Shown one piece after another: positions 5,703-61,802 of a stretch of 64,000 nt of DNA. The translations under genes were made by a program, and so were the position numbers. Location of the stretch: positions 1,056,001-1,120,000 of the forward strand of contig OY969564.1 in assembly GCA_963701095.1 (NCBI GenBank), in the 5' to 3' direction. How positions within the stretch are numbered: the first letter of the stretch is position 1; the number at the start of each line of letters is the position of its first letter. Source of the stretch: an uncultured Methanoregulaceae archaeon (GTDB lineage Archaea; Halobacteriota; Methanomicrobia; Methanomicrobiales; Methanospirillaceae). The notes below the pieces were generated by a model. It was not told the DNA's origin, did no database searches, and saw only the letters and a list, made by a program, of their open reading frames with translations.

Positions 5703-7690
5703 TTAACGAATCTTCGTACCCGGATCAACAGGTTTTTCCGGTGCCAGAAGCGATGCTGTATCACCGGCCGCAAGGATCATGCCATTGCTTTCTACGCCAA
5801 AAATTTTTGCCGGTGCAAGGTTTGTAAGAACAACAACATTTTTCCCGACAAGTTCTTCGGGTTTGTAGAACTGCGCAATGCCGCTCACAATCTGACGGAT
5901 CTCTCCACCGGTGTCAACCTTAAGTTTCAGGAGCTTGCTCGATTTTGGGATTCCTTCGGCAGCAAGCACTATTCCGGTTTTCATCTCGATTTTACTGAAA
6001 TCCTCGATTGAGATCGACGGTACCTTTTCCATTTTTTTATTCGCCTCCATAACACGATGCTGGAGCACAGCATCCAGCTCTGCAATCTGATTTTCCTCGA
6101 TCCTGCTAAACAGAGGGATTGGTGCCATAAGCTGCCTTTCTGGGACAAGGATAGCCGCCTCATCAATCATATGGGTTGCCACCCCGTCGGAATATCCCAA
6201 CTGAGCCCAGCATTCCTGTGCCTTTGCGGGTATTACCGGCTCGATCAGAAGGGCAAGCGCTTTTACAATCTGAATGCAGTTCTTTATTATCCGTGCAGCA
6301 GCGTCACGGTCAGTTTTTATTAATTTCCACGGCGCATTGGTCTGGATATACGTATTCCCGAAAGCGGCAAGCCCCATTATAGTATCAACTGCTCCTTTGA
6401 ACTCGTATTCCTTCATCTGGGCGTCAACACCAGTCAGGCACTTCTCGATTTCAGCAATGATAGCCGGATCGGTTGTTCCCGGAGGGACACCGCCGAACTC
6501 CTTGTGTGCGAAAAAGAGCGTACGATACACGAAGTTTCCGAAAATATTGACAACCTCGTTGTTTATCCGTTCGCCAAAAACTTTCCACGAGAAGTTGAGT
6601 TCTTTTGTATGGCTTGTATAGGCCAGCAGGTAGTAACGAAGGTAATCCGGGGAAAGACCTTTGTCAAGATAATCCTCGTTTGTCCAAACTACATAACCGC
6701 GGGATTTCGAAAATTTATGATCATCCACCTTTACCATCCCGCTCGCTACAACAGCATGAGGCTCTCCGTAACCGGCCCCTTTGAGGAGGGCAGGCCAGAA
6801 TATACAGTGGTGATAGATAATATCCCCGCCGATGAAATGGGTTACCCGGGTACTACCGCACCAGAATCGCTTCCAGTCTTTATTTATATCAGCCGCCCAC
6901 TCCTCGGTGAATGCAATGTACCCTATTGGTGCATCAACCCAAACATATACGACAAGATCGTCGCGGCCGGGGAATTTCACGCCCCAGTCAAGCGTGCGGG
7001 TAATACACCAGTCATGCAATTCATCCCGGATCCAGCCGATAGCATAGTTCTTTGCATTACTGGTTCCCCGGAGCCGATCAAGAAATGGCAGGAGATAATC
7101 CCTGAATGCGGAGAGCCTGAAGAAAAAATGTTCCTGATCCCGGAACTCCGCCTTTGTCCCACAGACTTTGCAAAACGGATCCTGGATCTCGCCTGGTTCG
7201 AGATGTTTGCCACACCCCTGGTCGCACTCATCCCCCCGGGCCTGCTTTCCACAGTAAGGACAGGTTCCCTCGACATATCTGTCCGGGAGAAACCGTCTGC
7301 ATTTCGGGCAGTACGCCTGGTGAACAATCTGTTTATAGATATATCCGTTTTTTTCCAACCGGCTCATGATCTCCCGGGTACGGTGATGATTGACCGGATC
7401 ATCAGTCATGCCAAAATGATCGAAATTAACGCCGATTCGTTTAAACGTTTCATCAAAATGCCGGTGGAACTGTTCGGAAAGCCCCGGGGCGAGATTCCCC
7501 GCTCTTCTGCTGACACAACAATAGGGGTCCCGTGGTTGTCAGAACCTGATATAAAAAGGACCTCTTCGCCAGTCCGCCGCATATAGCGGACGTAACAGTC
7601 TGCAGGGACGTACGTGCGCAAGTGACCGAGGTGGCAGGGCCCATTTGTATAAGGAAGCCCGCAGGTAACCAGCAGAGGGGGTTGAGACAT
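5703..7690 (-). CDS. metG: Methionyl-tRNA synthetase with C-terminal tRNA-binding domain (one frameshift near 7490)
   Basis: HLGH (HIGH) motif in 7406-7708 ORF; Zn knuckles, KFSKS (KMSKS) and OB-fold in 5703-7409 ORF. Confidence 0.95.
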
Positions 7691-14917: not shown

Positions 14918-15994
14918 ATGACAGACGCAACATCCCCAGAAAATACCCGGCAATCCTGCTGTGAGGGGGACAGGAAAAAGTCCTCTTGCCGTTGTTTTGT
15001 AAATACAGATTCTGAAGCGATCATCCGCACCACTACGGATTTTATTACCTTCGAAAACCGGTGGGATCATTTCCTCGCCCGGTGCGGCATAAACCGATCA
15101 GGCCATATCGTTGCCCCGGGCTTGTACCGTCTTGGTAATCCGACCACAGATTCACCGGTCTTCGCATCCGCGAACTACACACTGAGTTTTGATGCTCTTC
15201 GGGAAGCGATTGCCGGCATCGATGCGTATATTCTTGTGCTGGACACGAAAGGTATTAACGTCTGGTGTGCCGCGGGGAAGGGCACGTTCGGAACCGATGA
15301 ACTAATCCACCGCATTGGGGTTACCGGGCTTTCCAAGATCGTTTCACATCGCAAGATTATTCTTCCCCAGCTCGGCGCCCCCGGAATCTCTGCACATGAG
15401 GTATCAGGACAGTCCGGTTTTATGGTTGAGTACGGTCCGGTTCGTGCTAAAGACGTGCCAGCGTACCTTGCCACGCATGTGGCAACCCGGGATATGCGAA
15501 CGGTTAGATTCACCCTTGCCGACCGGCTCGTTCTCACACCAGTAGAACTGGCACACGTGCTCCTTCCTTTGATAGCAGCTACGGTAGCGCTCTATTTCCT
15601 TGCCGGTTTCGTGGCTTCGCTGGGTGCGGTAACCGCAGTCCTTGCAGGAACAGTCCTCTTCCCGGCGCTCCTTCCCATAATCCCAACCAGGGATTTTTCT
15701 ACAAAAGGATTCATCCTTGGCATAATTGTCGCACTTCCGTTCTCGGTATTCTTTGCTCTTGTCAAAGGAATGTCCGGTGTCGCACAGATATTCACAGGAC
15801 TTATACCACTCCTTATCATCCCGCCAGTAACTGCTTACCTTGCCCTTAACTTTACGGGATCGTCCACGTTTACATCACGTACTGGCGTGAAAAAGGAGAT
15901 CTTCCGGTACGTGCCGGTTATGGTACTCATGATAAGCATGGGAATAGTCCTTGCAATTGCGCTTGGTATGTTCCGTGTCCTCGGAGGGGTCTGA
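14918..15994 (+). CDS. hgcA: Mercury methylation corrinoid protein HgcA
   Basis: Diagnostic cap-helix motif NVWCAAGK, plus ANYTLSFD and C-terminal TM helices with LNFTGSSTFTS. Confidence 0.96.
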   Translation: MTDATSPENTRQSCCEGDRKKSSCRCFVNTDSEAIIRTTTDFITFENRWDHFLARCGINRSGHIVAPGLYRLGNPTTDSPVFASANYTLSFDALREAIAGIDAYILVLDTKGINVWCAAGKGTFGTDELIHRIGVTGLSKIVSHRKIILPQLGAPGISAHEVSGQSGFMVEYGPVRAKDVPAYLATHVATRDMRTVRFTLADRLVLTPVELAHVLLPLIAATVALYFLAGFVASLGAVTAVLAGTVLFPALLPIIPTRDFSTKGFILGIIVALPFSVFFALVKGMSGVAQIFTGLIPLLIIPPVTAYLALNFTGSSTFTSRTGVKKEIFRYVPVMVLMISMGIVLAIALGMFRVLGGV

Positions 15995-18042: not shown

Positions 18043-18298
18043 CTTGGGATTAGGATATACAATACGTCGTCAACTATTTAATCCTATCTTTACACTTCTT
18101 TTGACCAGAAGCCTTTTATTTAAGGCTGGATCGGATTTGCAAACCTTATAAAACAATGCAAAAAATGTTACCAGCAGTAATATCCAACCCTCATGGTTTT
18201 CCCTGCCCGGAGTTAGGACATACAACAATAGAACCGGACGCGAGCCTTTTTGTCGGGAGTCGTGTAACTGTATAAGAGACAAGTACCAGGGATCCTGC

Positions 18299-20016
18299 AT
18301 GAGTGACGTTTTTGAAAATGTGATGGATCTGGCCAAACGCCGGGGTTTTATCTGGCCCACATCCGAATGTTACGGTGCGGTGGCCGGTTTTATTGATTAC
18401 GGTCCGCTTGGCGCGATGATGAAGCGGAGGATCGAGAATATCTGGCGGCATTTTTACGTTGTCCAGGAAGGTTATTACGAAATTGAGTGCCCGACGATAG
18501 CGCAGGAAGCCGTTTTTATCGCTTCCGGGCATGTAAAAGGGTTCTCCGACAAGATGTGCCAGTGCCCTCACTGCAAAGAGTACCCTGAGAGCCGATCACG
18601 TGGCTGACGGTGGGGGCGTGAGCGGGGCTGCGACCATGGACAATGCGACGCTCGCCGCCGCAATTGCAGGATGTAAATGTCCTGCCTGCGACGAAGTGCT
18701 TGGTTGTGTCGACGTCTACAACTTCAACCTGATGTTTTCGACTACGATTGGCCCCGGTTCCCAGAGAGTCGGTTACCTGCGTCCCGAGACTGCCCAGGGA
18801 ATGTTTGTGGACTTTTCCCGGTTACTCAGATTTTACCGGGATAAGCTCCCCTTTGGTGCAGTGCAGATAGGAAAATCCTACCGGAACGAGATTTCACCCC
18901 GGCAGGGTATGATCCGGCTTCGTGAATTCACCCAGGCAGAAGCCGAGATTTTCGTCCACCCTCTCGAGAAAAACCATCACCCGGCATTTGCAAGATACGC
19001 GAATTACCGTATGCCTCTCCTGACCTACACGCACCAGCACAAATGCGAACCGGCCGTAGAAATGACCATGCGGGAAGCGGTAGATGCCAATGTGATCGCA
19101 AACGAATATGTTGCCTACTACGTCGCTCTCACCCACGAACTGCTCGTTACGGTCGGTATCCGGCAACGGCTCCGGTTCCGCCAGCACCTCCCTGATGAAC
19201 GGGCACACTATGCAACTGACTGCTGGGACGCTGAGGTATATTCGGAACGATTTGGCTGGGTCGAGACCGTAGGGATTGCCGACCGGACTGATTATGATCT
19301 GAATGCCCATGCAGCACAAAGCAAAACGTCAATGAGCGTTTTCATCCAGTACGATACCCCCAAGAAAGTCCAGCGCCGGAGAATCATCCCGAACATGGGC
19401 GTGCTTGGTAAACAGTACCGGCAGAAAGCTAAAGCTTATCTTTACCGCCCTTGAAACCGCGACACCGACCGCAGAAGGTGCGGACGTAACCGTCGATGGC
19501 GAGACAATTCATATCCCGGCGGACCTCTTTGAAGTCCGTGATGAGGTTGTCGACGTCAGGGGCGAGGAGATTGTCCCTCACGTGATCGAGCCCTCGTATG
19601 GTATCGACCGGATGTGCTATGCCGTGCTCGAGCAGGCCTACGCTGAGGATACAGCCGACGGCGAGAAACGCGTCGTACTCAGGCTCACGCCCAAGGTCGC
19701 ACCCGTCCAGGTAGCCGTATTCCCGCTAATGGCACGCGATGGTCTTGATACCCTGTCCGGGGAAATCACCTCCAACCTCCAGAAACAGGGTATCCTCGCA
19801 GAATATGACGATTCCGGGGCGATTGGCCGCCGCTACCGCCGGCAGGATGAGATCGGCACACCGTTTGCGGTTACGGTAGATTACGAGACCAAAGAAACAG
19901 GCACTGTAACCCTGAGGGACCGGGACAGTATGAAACAGGTGAGACTGAACACCGGTGACCTCCAGCAGATTATCCCTGCACTTATTGAAGGAAGCATGCA
20001 CTTTGCGGCCCTGTAA
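18299..20016 (+). CDS. glyS: Glycyl-tRNA synthetase (alpha2 type), 2 frameshifts
   Basis: DYGPLG, YLRPETAQG, RNEISPRQGMIRLREFTQAE, VIEPSYGIDR, IGRRYRRQDEIGTP across three ORFs. Confidence 0.95.
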
Positions 20017-20031
20017 CCGGATACATAATCC

Positions 20032-22263
20032 ATGAAAAACATCAACCATCCCCTCATCCGCCCTGAAAGCATCGAGTCGCGGGAATACCAGCTTGCAATA
20101 GCGATGAAGGCGCTCGACGCAAACACGATGGTTATCCTTCCGACAGGGCTTGGGAAAACCGCCATCGCCCTTCTGGTCGCTGCATCCCGGCTCTATAACG
20201 AAGGGGGCCGGATACTGATGCTTGCCCCGACAAAGCCGCTGGTGGAACAGCATCTCCGTTTTTTCGAAAAGTTCCTGGTTGCACAAAGTCCCCGGGAACC
20301 GGATTTACCGCCGTTTGCCATGTTCACCGGCGATGCCCCGCCAGCTGAACGCACTGCTGACTGGGAACGATCGCAGGTCATTTTTGCAACCCCACAGGTC
20401 GTGAAAAATGACCTCATTGCGGGCCGCTATACCTTAAAAGATGTCACCCTCCTCATTGTCGATGAATGCCACCGGGCAACCGGCAATTATGCCTACGTTT
20501 TTCTTGCCCGGCGGTATCATGACACAGCCGATAAACCCCTGGTTCTCGCCATGACCGCATCACCGGGAGGTTCACCGGAGAAAGTCGAGGAAGTGTGCCA
20601 AAACCTCGGGATTGCCCATGTAGAAAACAGGATGGAAAGTGACCCTGATGTCAGCCCGTACGTCCACGAACGGGATATTGAAATCATCCAGATCGATCTT
20701 CCGGTCGAACTCAAAAAAGTCATCCACGCAATCCAGAACCTGATTGACGACCGGCTGGCACTCCTTACCTCGCTTGGCTTTGTTGTCCCGAAACGGGACC
20801 GGCTATCGATGAAGGAACTCACTGGCATCAATGCCCAGATCCAGCAGAAGATCCAGAGCCGTGATCCTCATGGTTATGCAGCAGCCTCGGTCTATGCAGA
20901 ATGCATGAAACTCAAACATGCCATAACACTCGCCGAATCACAGGGGAGCGAAGTATTCCGGGGCTATATCGCAAAGCTGGTCGCGGAGGGACAGGGACCA
21001 GGAGGGAGTAAAGCCAGCCAGAGACTGTGCAATGATACGGCGTTTCGCGAGATTTATATCCAGACAAAAACCTGGTCCGGGGAAATCCACCCGAAACCTT
21101 CGGTCATTCTTGGTATTGTCAGGGACCAGCTCGCATCCCATCCCGACAGCCGCATTATCATCTTTGCAACATTCCGGGACACTGTGCAGCTGCTTGTAGA
21201 TTACCTCACCGCAAACGGGATCTCGTGTGAACGCTTTGTGGGACAGGCTACAAAAGACGCAGAGAAAGGTCTTTCCCAGAAAAAGCAGATCGCTGCACTG
21301 TCCCGGTTCAGGGATGGGGAGTTTAAAGTCCTGATCGCAACGTCTGTCGGGGAAGAGGGCCTTGATGTACCTTCCACCGACCTTGTGATCTTTTATGAGC
21401 CCGTCCCTTCAGAAATCCGGTCCATCCAGCGTAAAGGAAGAACAGGCCGGTCTGCCGCGGGAAAGGTTGTGGTCCTTGCAACAAAAGGCACTTCAGACGA
21501 TGTTTTCCGGTTCGTGAGTCAGTCCAAGGAAAAAAGGATGCAGAAGAACATGCAGGCATTGAGCAGGACTGCACTCCCCCAGCAGGTTCCCGAAGGCCAG
21601 GCACTCATCGAAGCATTCACCCCGCAGGGCCCGGCAATCCGGATCGATGACCGCGAAACGTCCTCGAAGGTTGTCGAGGAACTCTCTTCGATGGGAGCGG
21701 CAATCAGGCTCGAACGCCTGCCCCAGGGAGACTACGCAATCGGGGACCGGATCCTGGTGGAACGGAAAACTGCCCGTGATTTTGTCGATACCCTCATCAA
21801 CCGGGACCTTCTTGGCCAGGCTAAGGCACTTGCCGAAGCCGTTCCCCGTCCGGTCATGGTAATCGAAGGCGGCGATATCTATACAGAAAGAAACATCGAA
21901 CCAAACGCTCTCCGCGGTGTGCTTTCGGCACTGGCTATCGACATGGGCATTTCAGTCCTCTTTACCCGGGATGAACAGGAGACCGCCCGGATGCTCTTTG
22001 TTATTGCCCGACGGGAAGAAGGAGAACGCGGTGAACGGAAATTCCATCCCCGTAAATCCTTTAAATCCATAAAAGACGAGCAGGAGTATATCGTCTCCGC
22101 TTTCCCGGATATTGGCATGAAAAATGCCCGGGTTCTCCTGGCACATTTTGGTTCGGTTCAGGCTGTTGCAAATGCCGGTCTTGAAGATCTTGCATCCGTG
22201 AAAGGTATCGGGGAGAAAACAGCGCAAAAAGTGTTTGAGATCTGCCGCCGGCCTTACAGCTGA
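20032..22263 (+). CDS. hef: Hef/FANCM-like SF2 helicase - ERCC4 nuclease
   Basis: PTGLGKT, DECH, QRKGRTGR, GDY...VERK nuclease motif, HhH tail. Confidence 0.93.
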   Translation: MKNINHPLIRPESIESREYQLAIAMKALDANTMVILPTGLGKTAIALLVAASRLYNEGGRILMLAPTKPLVEQHLRFFEKFLVAQSPREPDLPPFAMFTGDAPPAERTADWERSQVIFATPQVVKNDLIAGRYTLKDVTLLIVDECHRATGNYAYVFLARRYHDTADKPLVLAMTASPGGSPEKVEEVCQNLGIAHVENRMESDPDVSPYVHERDIEIIQIDLPVELKKVIHAIQNLIDDRLALLTSLGFVVPKRDRLSMKELTGINAQIQQKIQSRDPHGYAAASVYAECMKLKHAITLAESQGSEVFRGYIAKLVAEGQGPGGSKASQRLCNDTAFREIYIQTKTWSGEIHPKPSVILGIVRDQLASHPDSRIIIFATFRDTVQLLVDYLTANGISCERFVGQATKDAEKGLSQKKQIAALSRFRDGEFKVLIATSVGEEGLDVPSTDLVIFYEPVPSEIRSIQRKGRTGRSAAGKVVVLATKGTSDDVFRFVSQSKEKRMQKNMQALSRTALPQQVPEGQALIEAFTPQGPAIRIDDRETSSKVVEELSSMGAAIRLERLPQGDYAIGDRILVERKTARDFVDTLINRDLLGQAKALAEAVPRPVMVIEGGDIYTERNIEPNALRGVLSALAIDMGISVLFTRDEQETARMLFVIARREEGERGERKFHPRKSFKSIKDEQEYIVSAFPDIGMKNARVLLAHFGSVQAVANAGLEDLASVKGIGEKTAQKVFEICRRPYS

Positions 22264-30719: not shown

Positions 30720-30824
30720 TTTGTAGTACTGGCATTGCGGGACATAAATAGGAGATGTCAGGGTACCGTTCCCTCTGCTTATGCGTATTATTTATTAATC
30801 CCCAGTGCCAACAATTGTACTCCT

Positions 30825-30898
30825 GCCCTAGTAGCTCAGACTGGGAGAGCGCCAGACTGAAGATCTGGTTGTCCCCGGTTCAAATCCGGGCTGGGGCA
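30825..30898 (+). tRNA. tRNA-Phe(GAA)
   Basis: GCCCTAG acceptor / CTGGGGC-A; anticodon arm CCAGA-CTGAAGA-TCTGG; T-arm GGTTCAAATCC. Confidence 0.97.
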
Positions 30899-30900
30899 TT
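30887..30900 (+). repeat. attL core CGGGCTGGGGCATT
   Basis: 3' end of tRNA-Phe, identical to 43057-43070. Confidence 0.88.
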
Positions 30901-31354
30901 CGGACAAAGGGTTACATTCTAATTCTAATTTCGGGCTTAATTTGCCCGTATTTTCCCTTTGGCTTTTACGCATAAAAACTGATCTCTGATATTCCGCTCA
31001 TCGTCGAGCGGGTCATTTTCCTATGATGAGTGCGAAAGATCCTATATGCCTCAAAACAGGGGTTCTTTTCATACGCCACATACTTTTACCCATCGATGGG
31101 AACTTTTGCCAATAGAACGCGATGGCGAACCTTCTCTCTATATTCCATGGGTATCCTGATGGCACGGGCCTAATGGTTTGCCGGAACAGCCGGTCCCCGC
31201 GTGGTTGGTGTTCCGGGAGGGTTTGCTGTATACGGACTGAACGGTCTAAACAGTGTGAACAACCGTTTTCAGAAGTGAACGAATCGGAAAATAGGCCGGG
31301 CTGGATACCTTTATTGGCTCGGAAAAATAATTGCCCCATAACGAAGATGAGAGA

Positions 31355-31706: not shown

Positions 31707-33866
31707 TTAAAACGGTGAAAGATGAGTGTCGATATATTTTTTGGCAAATTCGGCAACCAACAGGTTTCTCGACAAATAACGATCATATTTCTCATTGGAA
31801 ATATTCTGAATCTTCGCTGCAATCTCTTCGGCGGAGGGACAATTTTCAAGAAGCGAGTGATAGATATCCTGAATTTGTGAGGGGGATACCCCCTTGAATT
31901 TTAATGCGATCTCTAGATCCTCTACATCCAATCCGCCGAATGCTTTCCCAAGAATATAGAGGGACCGGTGTTTTGCAGATCCGGTCCAGGTAAACCAGTA
32001 CGTATTGGGCCCATCGATCACAAATGAACCTGTTGCAAGTCCCGCCTCCAGAGCGGCAGCCTGTGCCTCTTTCAGTATCAGTTTTGCATTTTCGTCAAGA
32101 TACTCAGGGATATAATTGGATGTGAGCAGCTCTCGCATTTTCTCTCGTACCCTTGGGTGAATATCAGAACCAAGCCCCCCCGAATAATGGGAAGTTTTCC
32201 CCCCCTTCGAGGGTATGACATACATTTTCTCTTTTTTCAGATTTAGTTCAATAATTTCCCACCGTTTTCCAGCTAAAATCAGGAATTGACGAGTTTCAAG
32301 GTCTGGAACGAATTGGACACTCCCAATTTTTCGTCCCGCAGATATGACATCAAGTTCAATTGCCGAAACAAATGCCGAATAAAAATCAAAATTTTTAACA
32401 ATTTTTTCCCCTTTTAATCCCAGAATCACAAGTCCGGAGGAATCCTGATCAACCAGATCGGCAATTTTGAGCCCGTGTAATATCTGAATAAAATCCTCCT
32501 GAGTGACATTATGGAACGCACCATCACTAACAAGCGTATCAAAGAGATCCTGAACCGTTGCTCCTCCTCGTTCTTTGATAACGCTCAAAATCTGTTGAAT
32601 CAATGTGGAAAAATGAAAAAGATCCGTTTGTGGTGGTTCGCACCACTTCTGAAACAAAAGTTCGGACATCGCCAGAGCCCGAAGAAATTCGGGATATAAT
32701 CTGTCAACAATATTCTCCGTTTTCTCGGGTTGAGAAATAAACATTATGAGGATTGAAGGATCACCCTCTTTACGTCCGCTTCTTCCCAGACGTTGGGCTA
32801 ATGAGTTCACCGACCAGGGAGCACCAATCTGTCCGATTCGGGATACTTTCCCGATATCAATTCCCATTTCCAATGCACTTGAACAAAATACAGAGATGTG
32901 TGGATTTGATTTCAGGGAATTTTCCACAGTTTCACGTTCGGTTATTGAGAGTGAACCATGAAAAATTTTAATGTTTTCAGGGTTTCCATATCTTTTTTCC
33001 ACGGTTCTTTTAACTGCATCTGTATAGTATTCCAGCATTTGACGACTATTGATGAAGATTAGGGAATTTCCTTTATTTTGCTCATCAAAGTAATAGATAA
33101 TATCTTCAATTAAAGAGGGATTTCGAGTTTTCTCATCTGCGCTGTCAGCATCCGGCTCATTATCTGGGAAATATCCTCGGATCAAATAACAGATATCCTT
33201 TTGTTCAATCGGATCTGTGATAAGCGAGACAGAGGAAGGATCTCGTGGGATTAACCACTGTTTTGCCAGTTCGGGATCGCCTATTGTTGCAGAAAGACCT
33301 ACAATCCTCACATCTCCTTTACTTTTATGCATCGCCCTAGACAGCAGACTTTTGAGATGGGCTCCTCTTTCTGTTCCAATAAAGGAATGCATCTCGTCAA
33401 TAACAATAAATGAGAGAGATTTAAAAAGATTTGAAAGATCATCCGAGTGATTGATAAACAATGATTCGATGGATTCAGGCGTGATAAGAAGAACTCCTGA
33501 CGGATTCTTCAGGAACTTCTTTTTTGGATCGGATCCAACATCACCGTGCCATTTGAAAACGGGGATTTCTGCGGTTTTGCATAATACTTCCAGACGTTCA
33601 AACTGATCATTGATCAAAGCTTTTAAGGGACCAACGTATATGGCAGAGATACCTCCATCATTTCTATCCACTATTTGCGAAAGGATAGGTAGAAATGCGG
33701 CTTCAGTTTTTCCTGATGCAGTTTGTGCAGATATAATCAGATTCTTGTTCGTGTTAAAAATTTCATGGATTGCATCTACCTGAATGGGCCTTAAGTCCAC
33801 CCAACCCATTTTGTATAGGATATATTTCAACTTTGGATGAAGTTGTTCGGAAGCAGATTTTTCCAT
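31707..33866 (-). CDS. Lhr-like DEAD/DEAH helicase (Shango SngC-like)
   Basis: QTASGKT, PLKALINDQ, DEMH, SAT, QRLGRSGR, FYSAF; follows a DUF2791-type ATPase. Confidence 0.85.
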   Translation of the reverse strand: MEKSASEQLHPKLKYILYKMGWVDLRPIQVDAIHEIFNTNKNLIISAQTASGKTEAAFLPILSQIVDRNDGGISAIYVGPLKALINDQFERLEVLCKTAEIPVFKWHGDVGSDPKKKFLKNPSGVLLITPESIESLFINHSDDLSNLFKSLSFIVIDEMHSFIGTERGAHLKSLLSRAMHKSKGDVRIVGLSATIGDPELAKQWLIPRDPSSVSLITDPIEQKDICYLIRGYFPDNEPDADSADEKTRNPSLIEDIIYYFDEQNKGNSLIFINSRQMLEYYTDAVKRTVEKRYGNPENIKIFHGSLSITERETVENSLKSNPHISVFCSSALEMGIDIGKVSRIGQIGAPWSVNSLAQRLGRSGRKEGDPSILIMFISQPEKTENIVDRLYPEFLRALAMSELLFQKWCEPPQTDLFHFSTLIQQILSVIKERGGATVQDLFDTLVSDGAFHNVTQEDFIQILHGLKIADLVDQDSSGLVILGLKGEKIVKNFDFYSAFVSAIELDVISAGRKIGSVQFVPDLETRQFLILAGKRWEIIELNLKKEKMYVIPSKGGKTSHYSGGLGSDIHPRVREKMRELLTSNYIPEYLDENAKLILKEAQAAALEAGLATGSFVIDGPNTYWFTWTGSAKHRSLYILGKAFGGLDVEDLEIALKFKGVSPSQIQDIYHSLLENCPSAEEIAAKIQNISNEKYDRYLSRNLLVAEFAKKYIDTHLSPF

Positions 33867-33882
33867 TTTTTTATCCTTTTAT

Positions 33883-35178
33883 TCATAATTTCAAATTTGC
33901 TAAGTCTCCGGTCGGATTTTTCTTGATTATTGAACTATCCTGCTTGAGTATGTCTTTCCATGACCTATCTGGGTGTGTTTCGAGAAGGGAGAGAAACTTC
34001 ACAAAACTTTTTACAGTTTCGCGCGGGTTCATATAGAAATCAGATCCCAAAATTTTCGAGCACTTAGTCAGAAATGCCTTCATTCCTTCATCAGTAACTA
34101 AATATTTTTCCGTGTCTCCATTGGCAAATACATCTCGGATATTTTCAAGGAGAAGATATGTGTCCTCTGGTGATAGGTTCCCCAATTTGATAACAGGACT
34201 ACGGGAATTTTTCAAATCCGGTGCGATCATCTTTTCAAGAGGGTTTTCTCGCAGTTTATAGTCAAGCGCGGGATAACTCGCAACACCATGATGGCTGTCA
34301 TCTAAAAAATCATCTGTGCCAGCAAAAATAAATCCTATACCACTGGTACTTCCCTGTATACAATCATTAAGTATGTCCAGTATTGTTTTGTAGTTCGAGT
34401 TCCTTGACTGGGCAACGTTCAAATGGTGGGATATGGCTCCCATCTCATCAAGAGTTACGAGAAAACCGGAATATCCTGCTTTCCGTACAAATCGTGCCCA
34501 TAATTTCAGATAATTATAGTAATTACTATCGTCGATAATTGTTCGAACTTTTAAATCCCGTTGTGCATCGGTCTTTGTTGGGTATTCTCCATAGAGCCAT
34601 CGAAGAGAAGCATCCATTAATTCGTCGTTGCCAGATTCAAATCCTTCGAAGTATTTAGTTAGAACCAATTCAAAATCATAACCATTGACATAATTCTGAA
34701 GATCTTCCTTGAGGTCATTGTGAATCTGGGATAAGATCTGTTTGTTGTCTTTTCCCTCGCTTCGTAGTTTATAATCAACATCAGAAATATATCGTTCAAT
34801 GATGCTTTTGAGAGCACCACCATCAGGTCTTGCTTTTACCGACAAATTATGCATCAATTCCGAGTACAATGCCCGTGCCTTGCCTTGGGTTGAATATAAG
34901 AGATGTCCTTGGCTGATATCCGCATGAGCGACTACAAATTTTCTATCGAGTGCTACAATACGGGAAAGGGTAAGAAAGAAACTTTTTCCGGACCCATAAC
35001 GCCCAATAATGAACCGGATAGCTGTCCCGTCATCTTTAATTCTTTCCAAATCGGTTACGATGGCAGCAATTTCATCATCTCTTCCGACTTGTATGTGTTG
35101 TAGGCCGATTTTTGGAACGAGGCCCACAGAAAGAGACATGAGTATTGCATCCCTTTCCTTTGGTTTAATTTTCCCCAT
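33883..35178 (-). CDS. DUF2791/BrxD-like P-loop ATPase (Shango SngB-like)
   Basis: GLVPKIGLQHIQVGR, GRYGSGKS Walker A, GYSGFLVTLDE Walker B. Confidence 0.85.
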   Translation of the reverse strand: MGKIKPKERDAILMSLSVGLVPKIGLQHIQVGRDDEIAAIVTDLERIKDDGTAIRFIIGRYGSGKSFFLTLSRIVALDRKFVVAHADISQGHLLYSTQGKARALYSELMHNLSVKARPDGGALKSIIERYISDVDYKLRSEGKDNKQILSQIHNDLKEDLQNYVNGYDFELVLTKYFEGFESGNDELMDASLRWLYGEYPTKTDAQRDLKVRTIIDDSNYYNYLKLWARFVRKAGYSGFLVTLDEMGAISHHLNVAQSRNSNYKTILDILNDCIQGSTSGIGFIFAGTDDFLDDSHHGVASYPALDYKLRENPLEKMIAPDLKNSRSPVIKLGNLSPEDTYLLLENIRDVFANGDTEKYLVTDEGMKAFLTKCSKILGSDFYMNPRETVKSFVKFLSLLETHPDRSWKDILKQDSSIIKKNPTGDLANLKL

Positions 35179-35207
35179 AATACCAACTGAACTTTCAGAA
35201 ATATATG

Positions 35208-36743
35208 TTATCTCATATTGATTCGGATAGTGTTTTCCTGCATCTCAAGCAAGGGATTATCGAATTTCAATACTTCTTCTGCCCATTCGTTAATATCGTC
35301 AAATGTCGAAGTTAGGCTGATTGCCCCCAGGTTACATTGTATGAGGATTTTCGTAAAATTTTCTGTAGATATCTCTGTTAATCCTTCAATATTTTTTAAA
35401 ACGGGATAATACCTTGAATCAAGACGATTCAAAGTATCCAGCGGGAATTGTAGATCATATCCTTGATTTTGGTTAACCGCAGGTTTTTCTGTCAGCTGAG
35501 AACTGGTTAATTCGGTTTCATCAGAAGAAACACCATCTTTCGAACCGAGTATTGTATCCATTTTGTCTTTGTTTTTATTGTGTTTTATCCGTTTTTCTTC
35601 GATCTCTACCAAATTTAACGAAATATAAGTTGGATCAGGATGTAATGTCTCTTCGCTCTCTTGAGTGATGGAGAAATCAATATCCTTTATTGAGGATGCT
35701 GTATTGTCAGGCCCAACACTCGGGAATTTAACGAGAGATTCACCCGTGAGAGAACGATCATTATCCGGTTCTTGATCCGTTGTTGTATCAACAAAGGGAA
35801 TAGATATTTGATTTGGTAAATTATCTTTATCGAAATCGTCGTTATTCTGAACGGACTCTTGATCTTTGAGAGGTTTTACGTCTTCAAAAAAATCGTCCAA
35901 TTTTTTTAGAGACTTTGCGGCATCACTGTAATCAATAAGATCAGAATCTTGTATCTGCTCATTAGGAATTGATTCATCTTGTAACGGAATGCTCTCTCCA
36001 CGGTTTGAAGGACCTGATTTTATTATTAGGACTGGATGCGGCCGAACCAATGTTCTCGCTACTTCTTCCGGTGTTGTTTTCATTGCTGAAACAGAACGAT
36101 TTGTAGGAGTTTCATAAGGTATTTTTGAGGATACATTCTGTTCTTTTTTGATGAGCACGTTTGGTACGACGTTCACCCTTGTGAAAGGTGGGTTCGATGG
36201 CTTTTCTGTAGGCTCTGATTGTGTGGACTTCCGGTTGTCGATAGTTTTTTGTTGGTTTTGAGTGTCGATCAATACGGGTGAAATTTCATTTTTTATTTTT
36301 GCACCGCAATGAGGACAATATTTTGCAGTGTCGTCAGTAATCAGCATGTAACATTTTGAACACCGAATTGGGTTTTCACTTCTAATTGTTTTTTTATAAG
36401 CGGAATGCATACGGGCACTAATAATAAGAAAATAAATGAATGAGATCAGGGTGAGTATGCCAAAAAAACTGAATATGCATTTTATCAAGCATAACTGATA
36501 ATTTATATTTCTTGGATCTTTTCTTTCATAATTGAGGAAAATGCCGTCCAAAATCAGATTTATCAACAAAATGAGTCCTAATAACATCGCAATAGGACTA
36601 TGATAATTTGGAGAATCAATCTCAAAAAATAAAGAGAGAAACGCCAATCCAAATAAACCGGATATAACGATATCCAATCCGATAACGCAGTGGAAAATTA
36701 TCGAATACCTGAAAGATAGATACTGGGTTTTGGCCCCATCCAT
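35208..36743 (-). CDS. Membrane protein with zinc ribbon and C-terminal TerB-C-like domain (SngA-like)
   Basis: ~3 N-terminal TM helices, CSKC...CPHC, long acidic linker, C-terminal FDDINEWAEEVL..PLLE. Confidence 0.65.
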   Translation of the reverse strand: MDGAKTQYLSFRYSIIFHCVIGLDIVISGLFGLAFLSLFFEIDSPNYHSPIAMLLGLILLINLILDGIFLNYERKDPRNINYQLCLIKCIFSFFGILTLISFIYFLIISARMHSAYKKTIRSENPIRCSKCYMLITDDTAKYCPHCGAKIKNEISPVLIDTQNQQKTIDNRKSTQSEPTEKPSNPPFTRVNVVPNVLIKKEQNVSSKIPYETPTNRSVSAMKTTPEEVARTLVRPHPVLIIKSGPSNRGESIPLQDESIPNEQIQDSDLIDYSDAAKSLKKLDDFFEDVKPLKDQESVQNNDDFDKDNLPNQISIPFVDTTTDQEPDNDRSLTGESLVKFPSVGPDNTASSIKDIDFSITQESEETLHPDPTYISLNLVEIEEKRIKHNKNKDKMDTILGSKDGVSSDETELTSSQLTEKPAVNQNQGYDLQFPLDTLNRLDSRYYPVLKNIEGLTEISTENFTKILIQCNLGAISLTSTFDDINEWAEEVLKFDNPLLEMQENTIRINMR

Positions 36744-36932
36744 GTTGAAGAATATATTGTGGGGGGACGTTATATTTTCCCTAGGTCTGATATCGATCTA
36801 ACAATGATGAAAATACGGCAAATTGTTTTTGAAAAACGCTCAAAATCCGGATTTTTGTAAGAAGGGTCAGGCCGGGATCCGGATCGAAAATTCAGATGTG
36901 AGTCTGGAATGAGTGTGAGGAGTAATAGGCGT

Positions 36933-37535
36933 TTATATCCCGCGCCTCTTCCGGGCTCGATAGAGGGTCATTACAGGGACATTGAAATGCTGTGCGATGT
37001 CTTCCCAGTTATCCCCCGCTGCTCTCATCTGTTCAACCACTGCAAAGTCTATATCCGCGCGGGGACGGCCAAGAGTCTTTCCCTCATCACGCGCGCGGTC
37101 CAGTCCCAATTTTGTTCTCTCGACAAGGTTATCCCGCTCCCGCTGTGCAACCCAGGAGAGGACCATTAAGAGGAGCTGCCGGATGTTCTTATCTTCCGAG
37201 TGAGTAAAGGCCTCGTTTGGTGACAGACTCCATACAAGAACGCCAAGACCTTCGATCTCCTCTATGATGTTGATAGTCTCCAGAGTCGTACGGCCGAGGC
37301 GGGAGATCTCATACACATAGAGGTATTTTACCGTCTCCCTGTGCTCTTGGATAAATGATAACAGACGGGAAAAGGCGGGTCTCTCATGGGGCTTCTTGGT
37401 CCCGGAGACACCCTTGTCTATAAAGATACAGTCCCGCACCACACCGGCTTTGATAAGCTCCCGGCACTGGTTATCCGGGTCCTGTTCCATCGTTGAAACC
37501 CGGACATATCCAACTTTCTCACATTTGAATGACAT
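36933..37535 (-). CDS. Serine recombinase (resolvase/invertase) with C-terminal HTH
   Basis: GYVRVST catalytic Ser, DKGVSG, SRLGR, ERTKLGL..AR..G..LGRP. Confidence 0.92.
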   Translation of the reverse strand: MSFKCEKVGYVRVSTMEQDPDNQCRELIKAGVVRDCIFIDKGVSGTKKPHERPAFSRLLSFIQEHRETVKYLYVYEISRLGRTTLETINIIEEIEGLGVLVWSLSPNEAFTHSEDKNIRQLLLMVLSWVAQRERDNLVERTKLGLDRARDEGKTLGRPRADIDFAVVEQMRAAGDNWEDIAQHFNVPVMTLYRARKRRGI

Positions 37536-37846: not shown

Positions 37847-38326
37847 TTACCCGGATAAATTACTTTTTATCACTTTCTTAAATTCTTCTAACTTCATTGT
37901 CTCTGGTTTAGAAAAACCCGCGTCTTGTAATTTTGATGGAATCCGGTACTTAATCAGGTTCTTATCTGAAGTTAAAAAATAGTTATCAGAATATGCAATT
38001 GCATAAGCCAGATGTGTCCGATCTGTGGGTTCACGAATCATCCGTGTATCAATCTCATCTTCTCCCATCTGAAAGCAGAGGATACGCACACCATCATTAG
38101 GAAAATGAACCGCGATGTTCCAATCATCAAGGAAGCCGTTTAATGCAAAAATATAATCCATTCCGTTTTCTTTTTCGTGCATCTGGGTAAACGCTTCACC
38201 CAAAACCGAAATCGATGTACAAATATTATAACCAGCGTTTAACGCATGTTCCAAAGTTGTTTTTAGCTGCGGTTTCTCAAAACACTGAAAAAAAATAGGT
38301 GTATCTAAAAAGAGGGAGTGATTCAT
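37847..38326 (-). CDS. PIN-domain (VapC-like) ribonuclease toxin
   Basis: FLDT, VLGE, DRTHLAYA, FLTSDKNL acidic tetrad pattern. Confidence 0.8.
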   Translation of the reverse strand: MNHSLFLDTPIFFQCFEKPQLKTTLEHALNAGYNICTSISVLGEAFTQMHEKENGMDYIFALNGFLDDWNIAVHFPNDGVRILCFQMGEDEIDTRMIREPTDRTHLAYAIAYSDNYFLTSDKNLIKYRIPSKLQDAGFSKPETMKLEEFKKVIKSNLSG

Positions 38327-38808: not shown

Positions 38809-40542
38809 TTAAATCAGGCTTTCCGGCTCTGGTTTTACCTCGTTGAAATTTCCATTCCAAGAGTAAGGGCCCTGGTAAACGGGGATGTTGCACTTCCTGT
38901 CACCAATTCGTAAAGAGGTCTTAGTAGGGGTGAGCTTGTATGCTTGCAGGTCCCGGGTAAATTTGTTTAGTGAGGGCATCCTTTTTCTCGGATCTATATG
39001 TTCGAGATCACAAAACTTTTGGTACTGTTCAAAGAATTTCTTACGGTCGAACATGCAGATGTCGGATGCCCTAGCATTCTCTGTCATCTTATCTTTGATG
39101 AACTGGCAGAGCGGATCCGCTGCCATGCTCCAACGTTCCATCACCCCTTCCGCATCCCTGTTTATGGTAAGCTTACCCTTTTTCCTGATGGATCCGATTG
39201 CCTCGATTACGAGGTTCAGGAAGCTCGTGTACATCTGATTAGTGAACATCCGGGCCGTGAAGGTATCATCTACTTCGTAAGAGTATGGAAAACGGACATA
39301 CTCCCATCGTTCCCAAAATGCAGGGTCATACTTCACGTCATCGGGATATTTCGGCGGATGATTACAGGTGAATACGTGCGGACAGGTTATAGTACCCTTG
39401 TAGGACTGTCGGCCCTTCCGTTCGATATTATGACGGCAGGACCCGGTAAACGTTTTGAACTTCCCCACATTTTTCAGCGGTATCTCCGAGAGGTCATCGT
39501 AGATATTGAGTATCTTACCTTCGAGGTCCCCGGCCACAAAACGATCTTCGCATATTGATTGGAGAGAGCGGGCGGATATTTGATCATTCCCGAAAAACCC
39601 GGTTAAAAACTCAATGTACGTACTCTTGCCGGCGTTTGGTTCGCCTTGGGCGATATAGTTCTTCTTGTAAGTCGTCTGGAGCTGTGCCTGGAGGATTGCC
39701 TGTGCTGCGATCTGAATCAAGAGCGGAACATCTTCGGGCTCTACCCACGAAAGCAGAAGGTTCCGAGCCGCATCTCCCTTGATACTGGCGTCATAGGTAA
39801 CGGGAATACGATAGGTGAATAGGTGCTGCGGTCCAGGCGGCAGGAGTTTGCCGGCTCTGGTCTTATCATCGAGTTTCAGGATACCATTTTCTAACGGGAT
39901 AAGATCCTTTACCTGATTAAATGGGTACTCGCACTGGGGATTTGTGGCAAGAAGATAAGCGAGGATATCCCGGATGTCTCGTGTGATACTACACTTTGCC
40001 CCGGTCACTTCAATGATGATGCGGATCGCCTGCTCCAAATCTCCCGCATTTTCCCGATAAATGCCGCTTTCTTTGTCGTAAACAAAGAGTGTTTTGTTAA
40101 AGCTCATCGTGTTAAATTGCTCGTGCAGGTGTATTGCTATCGCTGGATGCTCAAGTACGACCGTGCCCCTACTGCTTGTCCTGGTGAAACTGTCTAAAAG
40201 TGCGTGCTGCCGCTGTGCCTCCCGGTCCCGCTGCATGATCTCATATCGCTCGCGGACCTTCGGATCTTGTGCTGCCTGAGTAAGAGTCTCTCGGAGGGTA
40301 TCCGTGTTCATCAAGTCGAACCCTTTTGGCAGGCGCTGGAGTTTATCAAGTGCGGCGCATAGTGCCGGGTGGTCCATGCTGGCGATCTTCGCATCAGGAT
40401 AATCTGGGTGCTGCCATACTGCCGGGGCTGGTGCCAGTTGCTCGGCTGCGGGTTCTGAGATGGATCGGTTCATGGTGGCGATCAGAAATTCTTGGGTCTT
40501 TGCGTCTACGAGTGCTGCCCTGGTTGGTACGGTTTCAATCAA
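38809..40542 (-). CDS. SF3 (D5/P4-family) replicative helicase
   Basis: IPLENGIL and FTYRIPVTYD (D5_N-like), GEPNAGKS Walker A, NIYDD Walker B, FTCNHPP motif C, AFWERW. Confidence 0.85.
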   Translation of the reverse strand: MIETVPTRAALVDAKTQEFLIATMNRSISEPAAEQLAPAPAVWQHPDYPDAKIASMDHPALCAALDKLQRLPKGFDLMNTDTLRETLTQAAQDPKVRERYEIMQRDREAQRQHALLDSFTRTSSRGTVVLEHPAIAIHLHEQFNTMSFNKTLFVYDKESGIYRENAGDLEQAIRIIIEVTGAKCSITRDIRDILAYLLATNPQCEYPFNQVKDLIPLENGILKLDDKTRAGKLLPPGPQHLFTYRIPVTYDASIKGDAARNLLLSWVEPEDVPLLIQIAAQAILQAQLQTTYKKNYIAQGEPNAGKSTYIEFLTGFFGNDQISARSLQSICEDRFVAGDLEGKILNIYDDLSEIPLKNVGKFKTFTGSCRHNIERKGRQSYKGTITCPHVFTCNHPPKYPDDVKYDPAFWERWEYVRFPYSYEVDDTFTARMFTNQMYTSFLNLVIEAIGSIRKKGKLTINRDAEGVMERWSMAADPLCQFIKDKMTENARASDICMFDRKKFFEQYQKFCDLEHIDPRKRMPSLNKFTRDLQAYKLTPTKTSLRIGDRKCNIPVYQGPYSWNGNFNEVKPEPESLI

Positions 40543-41054: not shown

Positions 41055-41750
41055 ATGCCTCCAACAAAAGGGCTTGCCGGAAGGAAAGCAAAATTTCTGG
41101 TAAAAAAAGGACAATTGACTCCTCTCCGAGAATCAAAGCCTCTCAGAATAGAGCTTTATAAGATGTACCTTGAAGCACGGATTGGAAAAGGGAGAGAAGA
41201 GCTACCCACTATTTTAAAATTCATAATTGAAAGAGGGAAAGAATCCCCAGATGGATGGGTTCCATATCCTGAAATTTTGACGCATATGAAAGAAGAGAAG
41301 TTTGACTTGTCTCGGTCTAGAATGAACCAAATCATGATAGATCTGGAAAAGCATAGGATTACAATCAGACAGAAGAGGAAAAACCTAGTTTTTTACAAAA
41401 TTTCAGGAGAGGCATTGACTCCAGTTTTAACAGATTATGGAGTTAGAATAGAATATTTACGTCTAAAAAGGGCGAACAACGAACTCTCAAATAAACTAGT
41501 AATTGCAGAGTCTATCCTCAGTGAACACGATTTAATGGATAATTACGAATCTGAACTTCAAAGAATACATGATGAAAATGAGAGAAAGAAAGCGCGCCGG
41601 AGACGAATGAGCAAAGATGAAATTTTAAGGGATATTTTACAGTTAACTCCAGATGAAATGACTATTAGAAATAAATCTATTGAATCTAGTCAAGCGGTAA
41701 TTCTGTTAGATGATCTGAAAAAATTAAAACAGACTAAAAATGATAGTTAG
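41055..41750 (+). CDS. Putative winged-helix regulator with coiled coil
   Basis: LSRSRMNQIMIDLEKHRITIRQKRKNLVFYKI wHTH-like segment. Confidence 0.55.
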   Translation: MPPTKGLAGRKAKFLVKKGQLTPLRESKPLRIELYKMYLEARIGKGREELPTILKFIIERGKESPDGWVPYPEILTHMKEEKFDLSRSRMNQIMIDLEKHRITIRQKRKNLVFYKISGEALTPVLTDYGVRIEYLRLKRANNELSNKLVIAESILSEHDLMDNYESELQRIHDENERKKARRRRMSKDEILRDILQLTPDEMTIRNKSIESSQAVILLDDLKKLKQTKNDS

Positions 41751-42991
41751 GCTTGATTTTTTGCCTGCACCTGTAAAAGTTCCATTTTAAACTTATCGAG
41801 TATGGCCTGATATTCCGGCTGAAGTTCTGCCTGCTCTTTCGATTTTTTTACCTTATCCATTGCTTCTTCGGTTAGCTCAAGGCCACAATTTCCACAGAAC
41901 GACAAGGTTGGACCATTGACTGTGAAACACCGGGGGCATTGTCGGGGTTCCAACGCTTCAGACTTCTTCTTTTTATCAGGTGCAATGACCCCATTCATAC
42001 GGGCTATCTCATTTTCGGTGTCAGTGTCGGTGAGATGGGCATACGTTGCAAATTGCTTTGTGATGATGTTGCCCCACATCATTTTCTTAATAATGCTCTC
42101 GCTGCATCCCTGTTGGATGAGATGAGTTATCCGCGAATGACGGAAGATATGTGGCGTTATATGCTTCTCTATTCCCGCTCTATGAGCTATCTTCGATAAT
42201 TGTTTTGCTACTCCCCGGTACTGGAGTGATTGATGCTTCCCGTTTGTCAAAAAAACAAACCCTTCATCGGTGATCTCACCGGGGTAATCGTTCTTCCATT
42301 GTGCAAGGTATGACCGGGCCATGACAAGGGGGATAAAACGGGGCCTCTCCGTCTTGTCATTGACATTTATTACAACATTCCAGTCAGTAAATTTTACTTG
42401 TTTCCAGGTAAGTTTGCCGAGCTCGCCAACGCGGAATCCGCCTTCATACAGACAGGCAATTAGGGCACGGTCCCGGGATATCTGACATGCTTGAATCATT
42501 GCCTTGATCTGATCCTCGCTAAGGATCTGTTCAGCTGTCTTGGTCATAGTATCGTACCCGGGGGTATGAATTTTGGACAGTTTCTTTTCATCAATGGTCG
42601 AGTAGTGGTTCTCTACAAGCCACAGATGAAACCGTTTTAGAAAGCGGATAAAATCCCCTATAGTGTTTTTCTTGTACCGGAGTGAGCCATCAGGATTTTT
42701 TGCATTTTTAATAGTATCTATAGCTGAATAGACATCAGATATGGTGTTTGTACGGTAAGGACCTACAAACTCCCTCAGTTGGGTGAGAACTACATGCAGT
42801 TTAAACGCCCGGCTGTTGCTGATCTGGGATATTGCTCTTGCTTCCGCGACAAATTCACGGATGAGCGCGGCGTCATCTTCCGTGATCATTCCACTCTTGA
42901 TCTTTTTTTCAAGAGTGTTGTTCGAGTATTCCACGTACTTTGCATCACTAGCATGGAAACGTGATGTTTGGATGGTGCTGGTAGCTGCCAT
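41747..42991 (-). CDS. Tyrosine recombinase/integrase with C-terminal zinc ribbon
   Basis: RDRA...GFRVGEL, DKT, HIFRHSR, MWG, Y(AHL); CPRC...CGNC; intact gene next to attR. Confidence 0.93.
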   Translation of the reverse strand: MAATSTIQTSRFHASDAKYVEYSNNTLEKKIKSGMITEDDAALIREFVAEARAISQISNSRAFKLHVVLTQLREFVGPYRTNTISDVYSAIDTIKNAKNPDGSLRYKKNTIGDFIRFLKRFHLWLVENHYSTIDEKKLSKIHTPGYDTMTKTAEQILSEDQIKAMIQACQISRDRALIACLYEGGFRVGELGKLTWKQVKFTDWNVVINVNDKTERPRFIPLVMARSYLAQWKNDYPGEITDEGFVFLTNGKHQSLQYRGVAKQLSKIAHRAGIEKHITPHIFRHSRITHLIQQGCSESIIKKMMWGNIITKQFATYAHLTDTDTENEIARMNGVIAPDKKKKSEALEPRQCPRCFTVNGPTLSFCGNCGLELTEEAMDKVKKSKEQAELQPEYQAILDKFKMELLQVQAKNQA

Positions 42992-43056: not shown

Positions 43057-43070
43057 CGGGCTGGGGCATT
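43057..43070 (+). repeat. attR core CGGGCTGGGGCATT
   Basis: Identical to the tRNA-Phe 3' end 30887-30900. Confidence 0.88.
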
Positions 43071-43226
43071 GGAACTCATTTTAAATTTTAAATCCGGGCT
43101 GTATTTTCCCGCATTTTCGTTTCCTTGTTGTTCCCCTAATCCTTTGGAGGGATTGCCCATAGAAACCCTGATTCAGAGCACACAATAACGGAATATTCAA
43201 GCAGGGTCACCACAAACAAGAGGATA

Positions 43227-52415: not shown

Positions 52416-52680
52416 CTGTTTAGGAATTATTGCTCGGTATGGATATAATGGGTGGCAATAAAGTCGTTAGTCACGAGGTTTCAGGGGAGTAAAGATCCGG
52501 CCATGAGTGAGTGAAAGTGAAGGGACGCAAAATATCTCTCGGGAGGTGTTAACCGAAGAATATCTATTATAATGTGACAAGTAATATCCCAATAATTATT
52601 TTCTCCCGAATTAACGAATGACAAGATTAATGCCAGTATGAAATATATAAAATAATAATTAAATTGGGTTGAGTGGGAGA

Positions 52681-55605: not shown

Positions 55606-55609
55606 CGGC

Positions 55610-56101: not shown

Positions 56102-56110
56102 GATGATTTT

Positions 56111-58657: not shown

Positions 58658-58666
58658 GGTGCATGC

Positions 58667-61798: not shown

Positions 61799-61802
61799 TT
61801 TT

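Follow-up and report, generated by a model that had tools for sequence, protein, structure and literature searches.

The window analysed here, a stretch of 64,000 nucleotides (nt) from an uncultured Methanoregulaceae archaeon (contig OY969564.1), contains at positions 31707 to 36743 a three-gene operon related to the anti-phage system Shango (SngABC). All three genes are co-oriented on the minus strand. Gene 1 (P0001, 35208..36743), delimited by the open reading frame (ORF) list and domain searches, encodes an SngA-like protein of 511 amino acids (aa). It is followed by gene 2 (P0002, 33883..35178), encoding SngB, a BrxD-like P-loop ATPase of 431 aa, and by gene 3 (P0003, 31707..33866), encoding SngC, an Lhr/BrxHI-like superfamily-2 DExH helicase of 719 aa, both of which were assigned using PADLOC and Pfam. 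Only 29 nt separate gene 1 from gene 2 and 16 nt gene 2 from gene 3, and the G+C content of 0.38-0.41 across 32-38 kilobases (kb) compares with 0.51-0.54 at 25-31 kb, on the side of a tRNA gene, and with 0.51-0.52 at 45-50 kb. An earlier interpretation of this DNA from its letters alone (hereafter the sequence-only reading) had described three co-oriented, tightly spaced, AT-rich genes, which holds down to the exact coordinates. About 30 nt upstream of the SngA start codon (ATG), a TATA-like A/T-rich box (36770..36778, minus strand) was read by eye, which may serve as an archaeal promoter for a near-leaderless mRNA.

Gene 2 matches the Pfam family PF10923 (BrxC_BrxD, the former DUF2791) at E = 2.1e-128 and the PADLOC profile for SngB (PDLC03959) at 4e-142, with residues 3-416 aligning to profile positions 5-420 of 439. 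Its Walker A sequence GSGKS (residues 62-66) and a DE pair (residues 244-245) are invariant in an alignment of 20 SngB sequences, and no relative of SngB was found in the PDB at E ≤ 0.01. Gene 3 carries the Pfam domains DEAD and Helicase_C as well as a sub-threshold WH_Lhr match, and residues 3-714 align to positions 3-710 of 720 in the PADLOC profile for SngC (PDLC03960) at 3.1e-221. Hence, the DUF2791-type ATPase and the Lhr-like helicase named by the sequence-only reading are both borne out. Like the BrxD and BrxHI pair of BREX, to which they are homologous, genes 2 and 3 are also recognized by the corresponding PADLOC profiles (BrxD 4.5e-47, BrxHI 5.7e-121) and, for gene 2, by Pfam BrxC_BrxD. 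In contrast to BREX, however, gene 2 reaches only 155.3 bits against NCBIfam BrxD, for which the cut-off is 350, no BREX methyltransferase or other Brx genes are present in the probable integrative element that carries the operon, and the partner is a TerB_C protein. Since the Shango-specific profiles beat BrxD and BrxHI by a wide margin, genes 2 and 3 are assigned to Shango. Judged against these profiles, SngB and SngC are ordinary, intact and full length, and the three-gene set is very probably a Shango-family operon, as had already been proposed.

The first gene is the unusual part of this operon. Its C-terminal residues 373-511 (35211..35627, minus strand) form a TerB_C-homologous region according to hhalign, PADLOC, phmmer and AlphaFold2, consisting of a helix at about 373-400 and a winged-helix-like core at about 431-511. 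When the family alignment of gene 1 was compared with 74 canonical SngA tails using hhalign, a probability of 95.0 and an E-value of 3.6e-8 were obtained over 122 columns. Comparison with 15 full-length canonical SngA proteins gave 95.5 and 1.5e-8, the match being confined to the C-terminus; neither TerB_N nor TerB nor a transmembrane (TM) module in common with canonical SngA was recovered in gene 1. Residues 373-511 alone match the PADLOC profile for SngA (PDLC03958) at 5.1e-5 (21.1 bits), covering only profile positions 399-516 of 528, while canonical SngA proteins, used as control, score 1e-51 to 1e-55. TerB_C, expected from the sequence-only reading, is thus recovered by PADLOC with the fragment as well as by profile-profile comparison. 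An exhaustive phmmer search with the same residues over 1.84 billion representatives (E ≤ 1e-3) yielded eight matches: two members of gene 1's own family, one 43-aa fragment, P0130, and P0131-P0134. The latter four (6e-5 to 2.7e-4) were matched via C-termini that Pfam calls TerB_C at 2.3e-15 to 3.5e-20. BLASTP aligns 103 aa of the tail with the SngA encoded at the Methanoregula locus L001, at 38% identity. In a joint alignment, LDSRYYPVL of gene 1 falls on the canonical LD......L columns, and the stretch DDINEWAEE..PLLE (residues 482-500), which the sequence-only reading had singled out, on the canonical IN.WA.E..GD.L.E columns including Asn, the sole invariant residue. Modelled by AlphaFold2 with the 74-sequence alignment, residues 432-511 adopt the order helix, strand, helix, helix, beta-hairpin at a predicted local distance difference test (pLDDT) score of 89-96. 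On these alignments, the C-terminus of gene 1 is a genuine, divergent TerB_C.

A further piece of SngA is found upstream of this tail. Residues 234-256 (35976..36044, minus strand) contain the conserved linear motif RP.P.L..K...PS..GE..P..D, recognized from the family alignment and from BLASTP, in which a second segment pairs residues 237-255 of P0001 with residues 619-637 of the L001 protein, i.e., with the P..V...GE.IP motif preceding TerB_C in canonical SngA. When the last 160 residues of 74 canonical proteins were inspected, 39 contained the core pattern G..[IVL]P, the median distance to the C-terminus being 146 residues, whereas the motif of the gene 1 family lies 262-285 residues from the end (263 in P0001), or 399 in P0006, which carries a large insertion. 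From the second BLASTP segment and the motif it therefore follows that the SngA-derived part comprises approximately residues 234-511 and includes an acidic insert that has expanded; for residues 1-233, no counterpart in SngA is detectable. According to the sequence-only reading, gene 1 keeps only the TerB_C tail. TerB_C itself stands, given hhalign, the PADLOC fragment match and the phmmer bridges, but 'only' does not, as the SngA part starts at the 234-256 motif.

The N-terminal part begins with three hydrophobic, TM-like segments within residues 13-114 (36402..36707, minus strand), placed by a Kyte-Doolittle scan at 13-44, 47-73 and 82-114. AlphaFold2, run with the seven-member family alignment, predicts helices at 2-41, 50-75 and 82-119 (pLDDT 50-69), followed by a small beta ribbon. 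A motif scan identified a zinc ribbon of the form CxxC-x11-CxxC at residues 128-146 (36306..36362, minus strand), for which Zn_Ribbon_1 gives an E-value of 2e-4, under the Pfam cut-off. Residues 151-430 are 72% polar, and residues 261-430 carry a net charge of -22. In the AlphaFold2 model, residues 152-376 are disordered, residues 261-430 mostly have a pLDDT <35, a helix is formed at 378-400 and the tail is poorly modelled; in total, predicted disorder extends over more than half of the 511 residues. The roughly three TM helices, the CxxC-CxxC ribbon and the long acidic linker of the sequence-only reading are therefore all found. That reading had staked itself on a TerB_C match and on the absence of the full canonical SngA domain set: TerB_C was detected, while TerB_N and TerB gave no Pfam match even at E ≤ 1, and hhalign aligned the C-terminus only. 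Searches against NCBIfam returned nothing meaningful, and in the PDB no relative of P0001 was better than E = 0.3. Look-alikes of residues 1-160 in the ESM Atlas were exclusively generic zinc-ribbon membrane proteins with scores ≤0.85, which, at a tool level of 0.9, are to be taken as leads only.

Conservation within the family of gene 1 is very unevenly distributed. All seven members, the most distant at 45% identity, have an open reading frame and share the 234-256 motif without variation. Identity within the TerB_C core amounts to 73-92%, whereas it drops down to 31% in the linker and to 13% in the TM region. Conservation of tail and motif amid a drifting linker is, as far as alignments can tell, what selection acting on these two parts produces. 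The architecture of gene 1 is independently confirmed by P0004, since this protein has the same length of 511 aa and is 86% identical. The ribbon is absent in P0008, the TerB_C core of which is still 92% identical, and both ribbon and TM region are absent in P0009, with a core still 73% identical. Judged from the family, the zinc ribbon is dispensable.

For comparison with other genomes, SngB loci were fetched with the 20-sequence SngB alignment, one genome per species, resulting in at least 562 relatives, the best 80 of which were examined. An upstream co-oriented ORF was picked in 79 of these 80 loci, and Pfam domains were counted at E ≤ 1e-5. TerB_C was present in 78 of the 79 upstream ORFs, TerB in 69 and TerB_N in 61. 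The complete combination of TerB_N, TerB and TerB_C accounted for 54 ORFs and TerB plus TerB_C for 15 (six cut by a contig end, three frameshifted fragments and six full-length verrucomicrobial proteins); TerB_N plus TerB_C occurred in seven, TerB_C only in two, and one ORF had no TerB_C. Of six short or odd upstream ORFs that were rechecked, five were rejected as reduced SngA, as the canonical gene is split in L061, located further upstream in L079, and frameshifted in L010, L016 and L051; the sixth, the TerB_C-only protein of L044 (235 aa), is too close to a contig end (293 nt) to be judged. Thus, among the judgeable loci of the best 80 of at least 562, no SngA lacks both TerB_N and TerB. 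Hence, the form of gene 1 is rare, and its designation as unusual is upheld.

Three archaeal loci were read, those of Methanoregula (L001), Methanosphaerula subterraneus (L008) and a member of the Methanoregulaceae (L021). Their SngB proteins share 57-62% identity with SngB of the window, and the SngA of L008 likewise starts with three hydrophobic segments. In contrast to gene 1, however, all three SngA are canonical, with TerB_N, TerB and TerB_C, and their GE-x-IP motif is found ~146 residues from the C-terminus instead of 263. Among the best 80, L001, L002 and L021 have the closest SngA tails and at the same time the closest SngB (59-62% identity), and a neighbour-joining tree places the window SngB inside a clade, the known members of which carry canonical SngA. 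Membrane anchors and ribbons are also encountered on ordinary SngA proteins: strongly hydrophobic 19-residue segments precede TerB_N or TerB in 36 of 78 TerB_C-bearing upstream proteins, and an N-terminal CxxC..CxxC ribbon is found in 6 out of 79, followed by hydrophobic segments in four planctomycete proteins. Further accessory domains on SngA are the membrane domain DUF805 (in three proteins), PG_binding_1 (in two), GYF_2 and DUF4236. Anchors and ribbons are therefore recurrent accessories of ordinary SngA. The 'swapped, membrane-anchored sensor' of the sequence-only reading, for which nothing at the N-terminus shows sensing, is only partly borne out and not supported in that wording.

A few of the proteins and loci encountered in these searches deserve mention in their own right. 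In locus L010 (Planctomycetota), several tandem SngA-like segments are located upstream of SngB at 16-6980, with tblastn matches to the SngA of L005 at 16-1033, 1803-2540, 2817-3751, 3917-4681 and 4924-6980, which suggests duplicated or decayed SngA copies. In L061, approximately 850 bp (5940-6793) interrupt the canonical SngA between the TerB region and TerB_C. The six full-length verrucomicrobial SngA proteins (L018, L020, L027, L031, L035 and L038; 735-852 aa) combine TerB and TerB_C without Pfam TerB_N at the counting threshold and have 400-550 N-terminal residues without domain assignment. Finally, the phmmer matches P0133 and P0134 (~890 aa) are composed of a beta-propeller, many TPR repeats and, according to Pfam, a bona fide TerB_C tail, to which the PADLOC SngA match is confined; they represent a different N-terminal replacement on TerB_C.

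Taken together, the locus is best read as a Shango-family operon on a tRNA-Phe element with a reduced SngA, the anchored TerB_C of which would serve SngB and SngC; we assign this overall reading a probability of roughly 60%. Because a part of the canonical SngA proteins already has N-terminal hydrophobic segments or zinc ribbons, gene 1 looks more like a reduced SngA than like an SngA with a new sensor. The most economical history would be the loss of the TerB_N-TerB core, i.e., an L008-like ancestor consisting of anchor, TerB_N, TerB, motif and TerB_C would have lost its middle.

A possible mechanism can be outlined from the comparative data. Since TerB_C is the only universal part of SngA, this domain, perhaps together with the GE-x-IP motif, would be the module through which SngA is coupled to the motor formed by SngB and SngC. 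This module would be held at the cell membrane, the site of viral DNA entry, by the membrane helices, and the disordered, partly acidic linker of ~220-280 residues would act as a leash. Permanent anchor and leash could thereby replace the TerB_N/TerB module and the amphitropic, regulated membrane association that has been proposed for TerB, after which the helicase-ATPase pair would work on the incoming nucleic acid in the way canonical Shango does. The identity of the genes, their domains, the rare architecture and the mobile-element setting are results of the searches. That gene 1 binds SngB/SngC, that its helices enter the membrane so as to leave the C-terminus in the cytoplasm, and that the operon acts against viruses is what we infer here from sequence comparison, and this tether-and-dock mechanism is put forward tentatively, at somewhat less than even odds. 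The stronger claim that Shango immunity can do without TerB_N and TerB, such that anchor, leash, GE-x-IP motif and TerB_C would be enough to arm SngB/SngC, appears rather doubtful at present. If it were true, SngA would have its real core in TerB_C, Shango would be a helicase system tethered to the membrane, and the Methanoregula lineage would hold a natural minimal version of it, pointing to the domain on which to work out the mechanism. An SngA devoid of TerB_N and TerB that retains a conserved TerB_C and motif also points to the likeliest contact with the ATPase-helicase pair.

Other explanations of the same operon differ in how they account for gene 1. It could be the non-working remnant of a large internal deletion in a decaying system, with the operon inert or SngB and SngC acting without it, considering that both name-giving domains are gone, that predicted disorder covers over half of the protein, that frameshifted or split SngA genes are common elsewhere (L010, L016, L051, L061) and that frameshifts also occur elsewhere in the same assembly. 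A frame kept open in 7/7 family members down to 45% identity, the invariant 234-256 motif and 73-92% identity in the TerB_C core next to a linker drifting to 31%, as well as SngB and SngC being full length against their profiles, speak however against a decaying system, and we regard this explanation as improbable. Alternatively, TM helices and zinc ribbon might have been newly acquired from elsewhere, conferring a new trigger specificity. SngA accessory domains indeed vary widely (GYF_2, DUF4236, DUF805, PG_binding_1), foreign N-termini on TerB_C do exist, as in the beta-propeller/TPR proteins P0133 and P0134, and the N-terminus of gene 1 lacks similarity to canonical SngA N-termini. Yet canonical SngA already possesses TM segments (36/78) and zinc ribbons (6/79), the tail is conserved in P0008 without the ribbon and in P0009 without ribbon and TM region, the ESM Atlas offers only generic look-alikes for residues 1-160 (≤0.85), and the N-terminus bears no mark of a ligand- or virus-binding domain, so that a sensor swap is unlikely as well.

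A function outside immunity, in which the ATPase-helicase pair and a membrane adaptor serve the element's own replication, partition or transfer, would fit the position of the operon inside a mobile element near a resolvase, a primase-helicase and an integrase. Defence systems are, however, common cargo of integrative elements. Moreover, genes 2 and 3 match Shango-specific profiles best by a wide margin, and protection from phages by the homologous system of three genes is on record for E. coli and P. aeruginosa; we consider this explanation very improbable.

Several results weigh against the reduced, anchored SngA favoured here. On the side of recognition, full-length gene 1 matches nothing in PADLOC at E ≤ 1, and its Pfam TerB_C match (PF15615; residues 373-509 on positions 16-140 of 148, E = 0.045) scores 14.4 bits against a gathering threshold of 26.3; with gene 1 under the PADLOC and Pfam thresholds, a complete Shango call is probably missed by standard pipelines. 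The phmmer match P0130, an immunoglobulin-repeat protein (2.4e-5), was rejected as a tail homologue, as it is without TerB_C and looks spurious. Since Foldseek returned no PDB match for the tail model at E ≤ 0.001 (best E = 0.52), the term 'winged-helix-like' refers to topology and to weak matches, many of the top ones being what we take to be winged-helix domains. AlphaFold2 models the full-length protein poorly (mean pLDDT 40.2, predicted template modelling score 0.19), and because the positive-inside count for the three TM helices is a near tie (6 vs 5 Lys/Arg), the cytoplasmic location of the C-terminus is an assumption. With respect to history, hhalign detected no similarity when the TM region of gene 1 was compared with its canonical SngA counterparts; that the anchors share an origin is therefore unproven, which weighs on the lost-middle scenario, and the neighbour-joining tree of SngB, calculated with Biopython, carries no support values. 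As P0009 appears to be devoid of TM region and ribbon, the anchor may be non-essential, or the P0009 record may be truncated. Outside the window, the gene 1 family is linked to SngB/SngC by one coincidence, namely P0009 and the 90%-identical SngB P0012, each on a 5318-nt contig from the same source. The assembly itself carries indels or errors, since the essential glycyl-tRNA synthetase gene is split over three frames (18152..18607, 18537..19454 and 19336..20016). Finally, published protection tests of Shango concern bacterial systems only.

Shango is described as the combination of a TerB protein, an ATPase and a helicase, and the protection it confers on E. coli and P. aeruginosa is modest. 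Like Shango of E. coli and P. aeruginosa PA14 (Millman et al. 2022 preprint; Johnson et al. 2023, PMC10250203), the operon of the window displays the co-oriented order of adaptor, BrxD-like ATPase and Lhr-like helicase, and its first protein ends in TerB_C. In contrast, this protein is without TerB and TerB_N, measures 511 aa instead of ~700-900 aa and escapes the PADLOC SngA profile at full length, and the operon resides in an archaeal host on an integrative element. The published definition of Shango includes a first protein with a TerB domain, which neither Pfam nor hhalign detects in gene 1. Association of TerB_N and TerB_C with this ATPase-helicase pair was reportedly first described by Anantharaman, Iyer and Aravind in 2012, who are also said to have noted variable N-termini on TerB_C proteins. 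Membrane association and a role in membrane surveillance have been proposed for the TerB proteins of both Shango and Bunzi (10.1101/2022.05.11.491447; 10.1101/2025.09.30.679545). A comparable surveillance by a TerB-family protein is proposed for Bunzi (BnzA) and Dionysus (DinB), the Bunzi TerB protein having predicted TM helices; both systems, however, are defined by the TerB domain that is absent here, and both are without the SngB/SngC motor. Archaeal Shango is already listed in a survey (PMC11291487). No description of an SngA without TerB and TerB_N, and no mechanistic study of Shango, was found in the literature searched. As full-length gene 1 escapes both SngA and TerB_C models, finders based on hidden Markov models probably under-count archaeal Shango.

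Apart from the form of its SngA, the locus would be ordinary defence cargo on an ordinary integrative element. The probable integration target is a tRNA-Phe gene (GAA; 30824..30899, plus strand), the 3' end of which provides the probable left attachment site attL (30887..30905, plus strand) as one copy of a direct repeat. A partial copy of the same 3' end at 43057..43075 (plus strand), located 66 nt from the integrase gene, is the probable attR. The repeat comprises 14 exactly matching nt (second copy 43057-43070) and 17 of 19 overall; as by our own arithmetic ~0.35 exact 14-mers are expected by chance in 13.8 kb, it is credible because of its position, not its length. Between these sites, all on the minus strand, Pfam identifies a tyrosine integrase (41747..42991; Phage_integrase, 7.7e-25), a primase-helicase-like replication protein with D5_N/DUF5906 (38809..40542), a weak PIN-domain protein (37847..38326; E = 1.2e-4, 23.1 bits against a cut-off of 23.6) and, directly upstream of the operon, a serine recombinase of the resolvase type (36933..37535; Resolvase, 7.4e-33). 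Hence, an integrative element of ~12.2 kb at tRNA-Phe with Shango as cargo is probable. Beyond the main repeat, further similarities were noticed at 43087-43118 and 30933-30958: part of the tRNA-Phe T-arm recurs once more (TTTAAATCCGGGCTG), and a GTATTTTCCC stretch is shared; the extra T-arm copy and GTATTTTCCC may have been left behind by an integration that was earlier or nested.

The archaeal origin claimed by the sequence-only reading is supported by the Hef nuclease gene of the window (20032-22263), which scores 989 bits against the NCBIfam equivalog cut-off of 610 and encodes a protein 99% identical to one from Methanoregula sp., the named organisms among the top matches all being Methanoregula or Methanoregulaceae. 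By these matches, the host is a Methanoregula and hence a methane producer. Elsewhere in the window, the ORF for methionyl-tRNA synthetase (5703..7409) begins only at profile position 97, so that ORF calls need to be treated with caution. HgcA, the corrinoid protein of mercury methylation, is encoded at 14918-15994 (436 bits against an NCBIfam equivalog cut-off of 275), and the Methanoregula host may accordingly be a mercury methylator. A second defence locus, a DISARM-like cluster, occupies another low-GC stretch at 50967-63449, in which the ORFs 52669-55605, 56111-58657 and 58667-61798 match the NCBIfam models anti-phage DUF499, anti-phage DUF1156 and DISARM SNF2-like helicase DrmD, respectively, all below the equivalog cut-offs.

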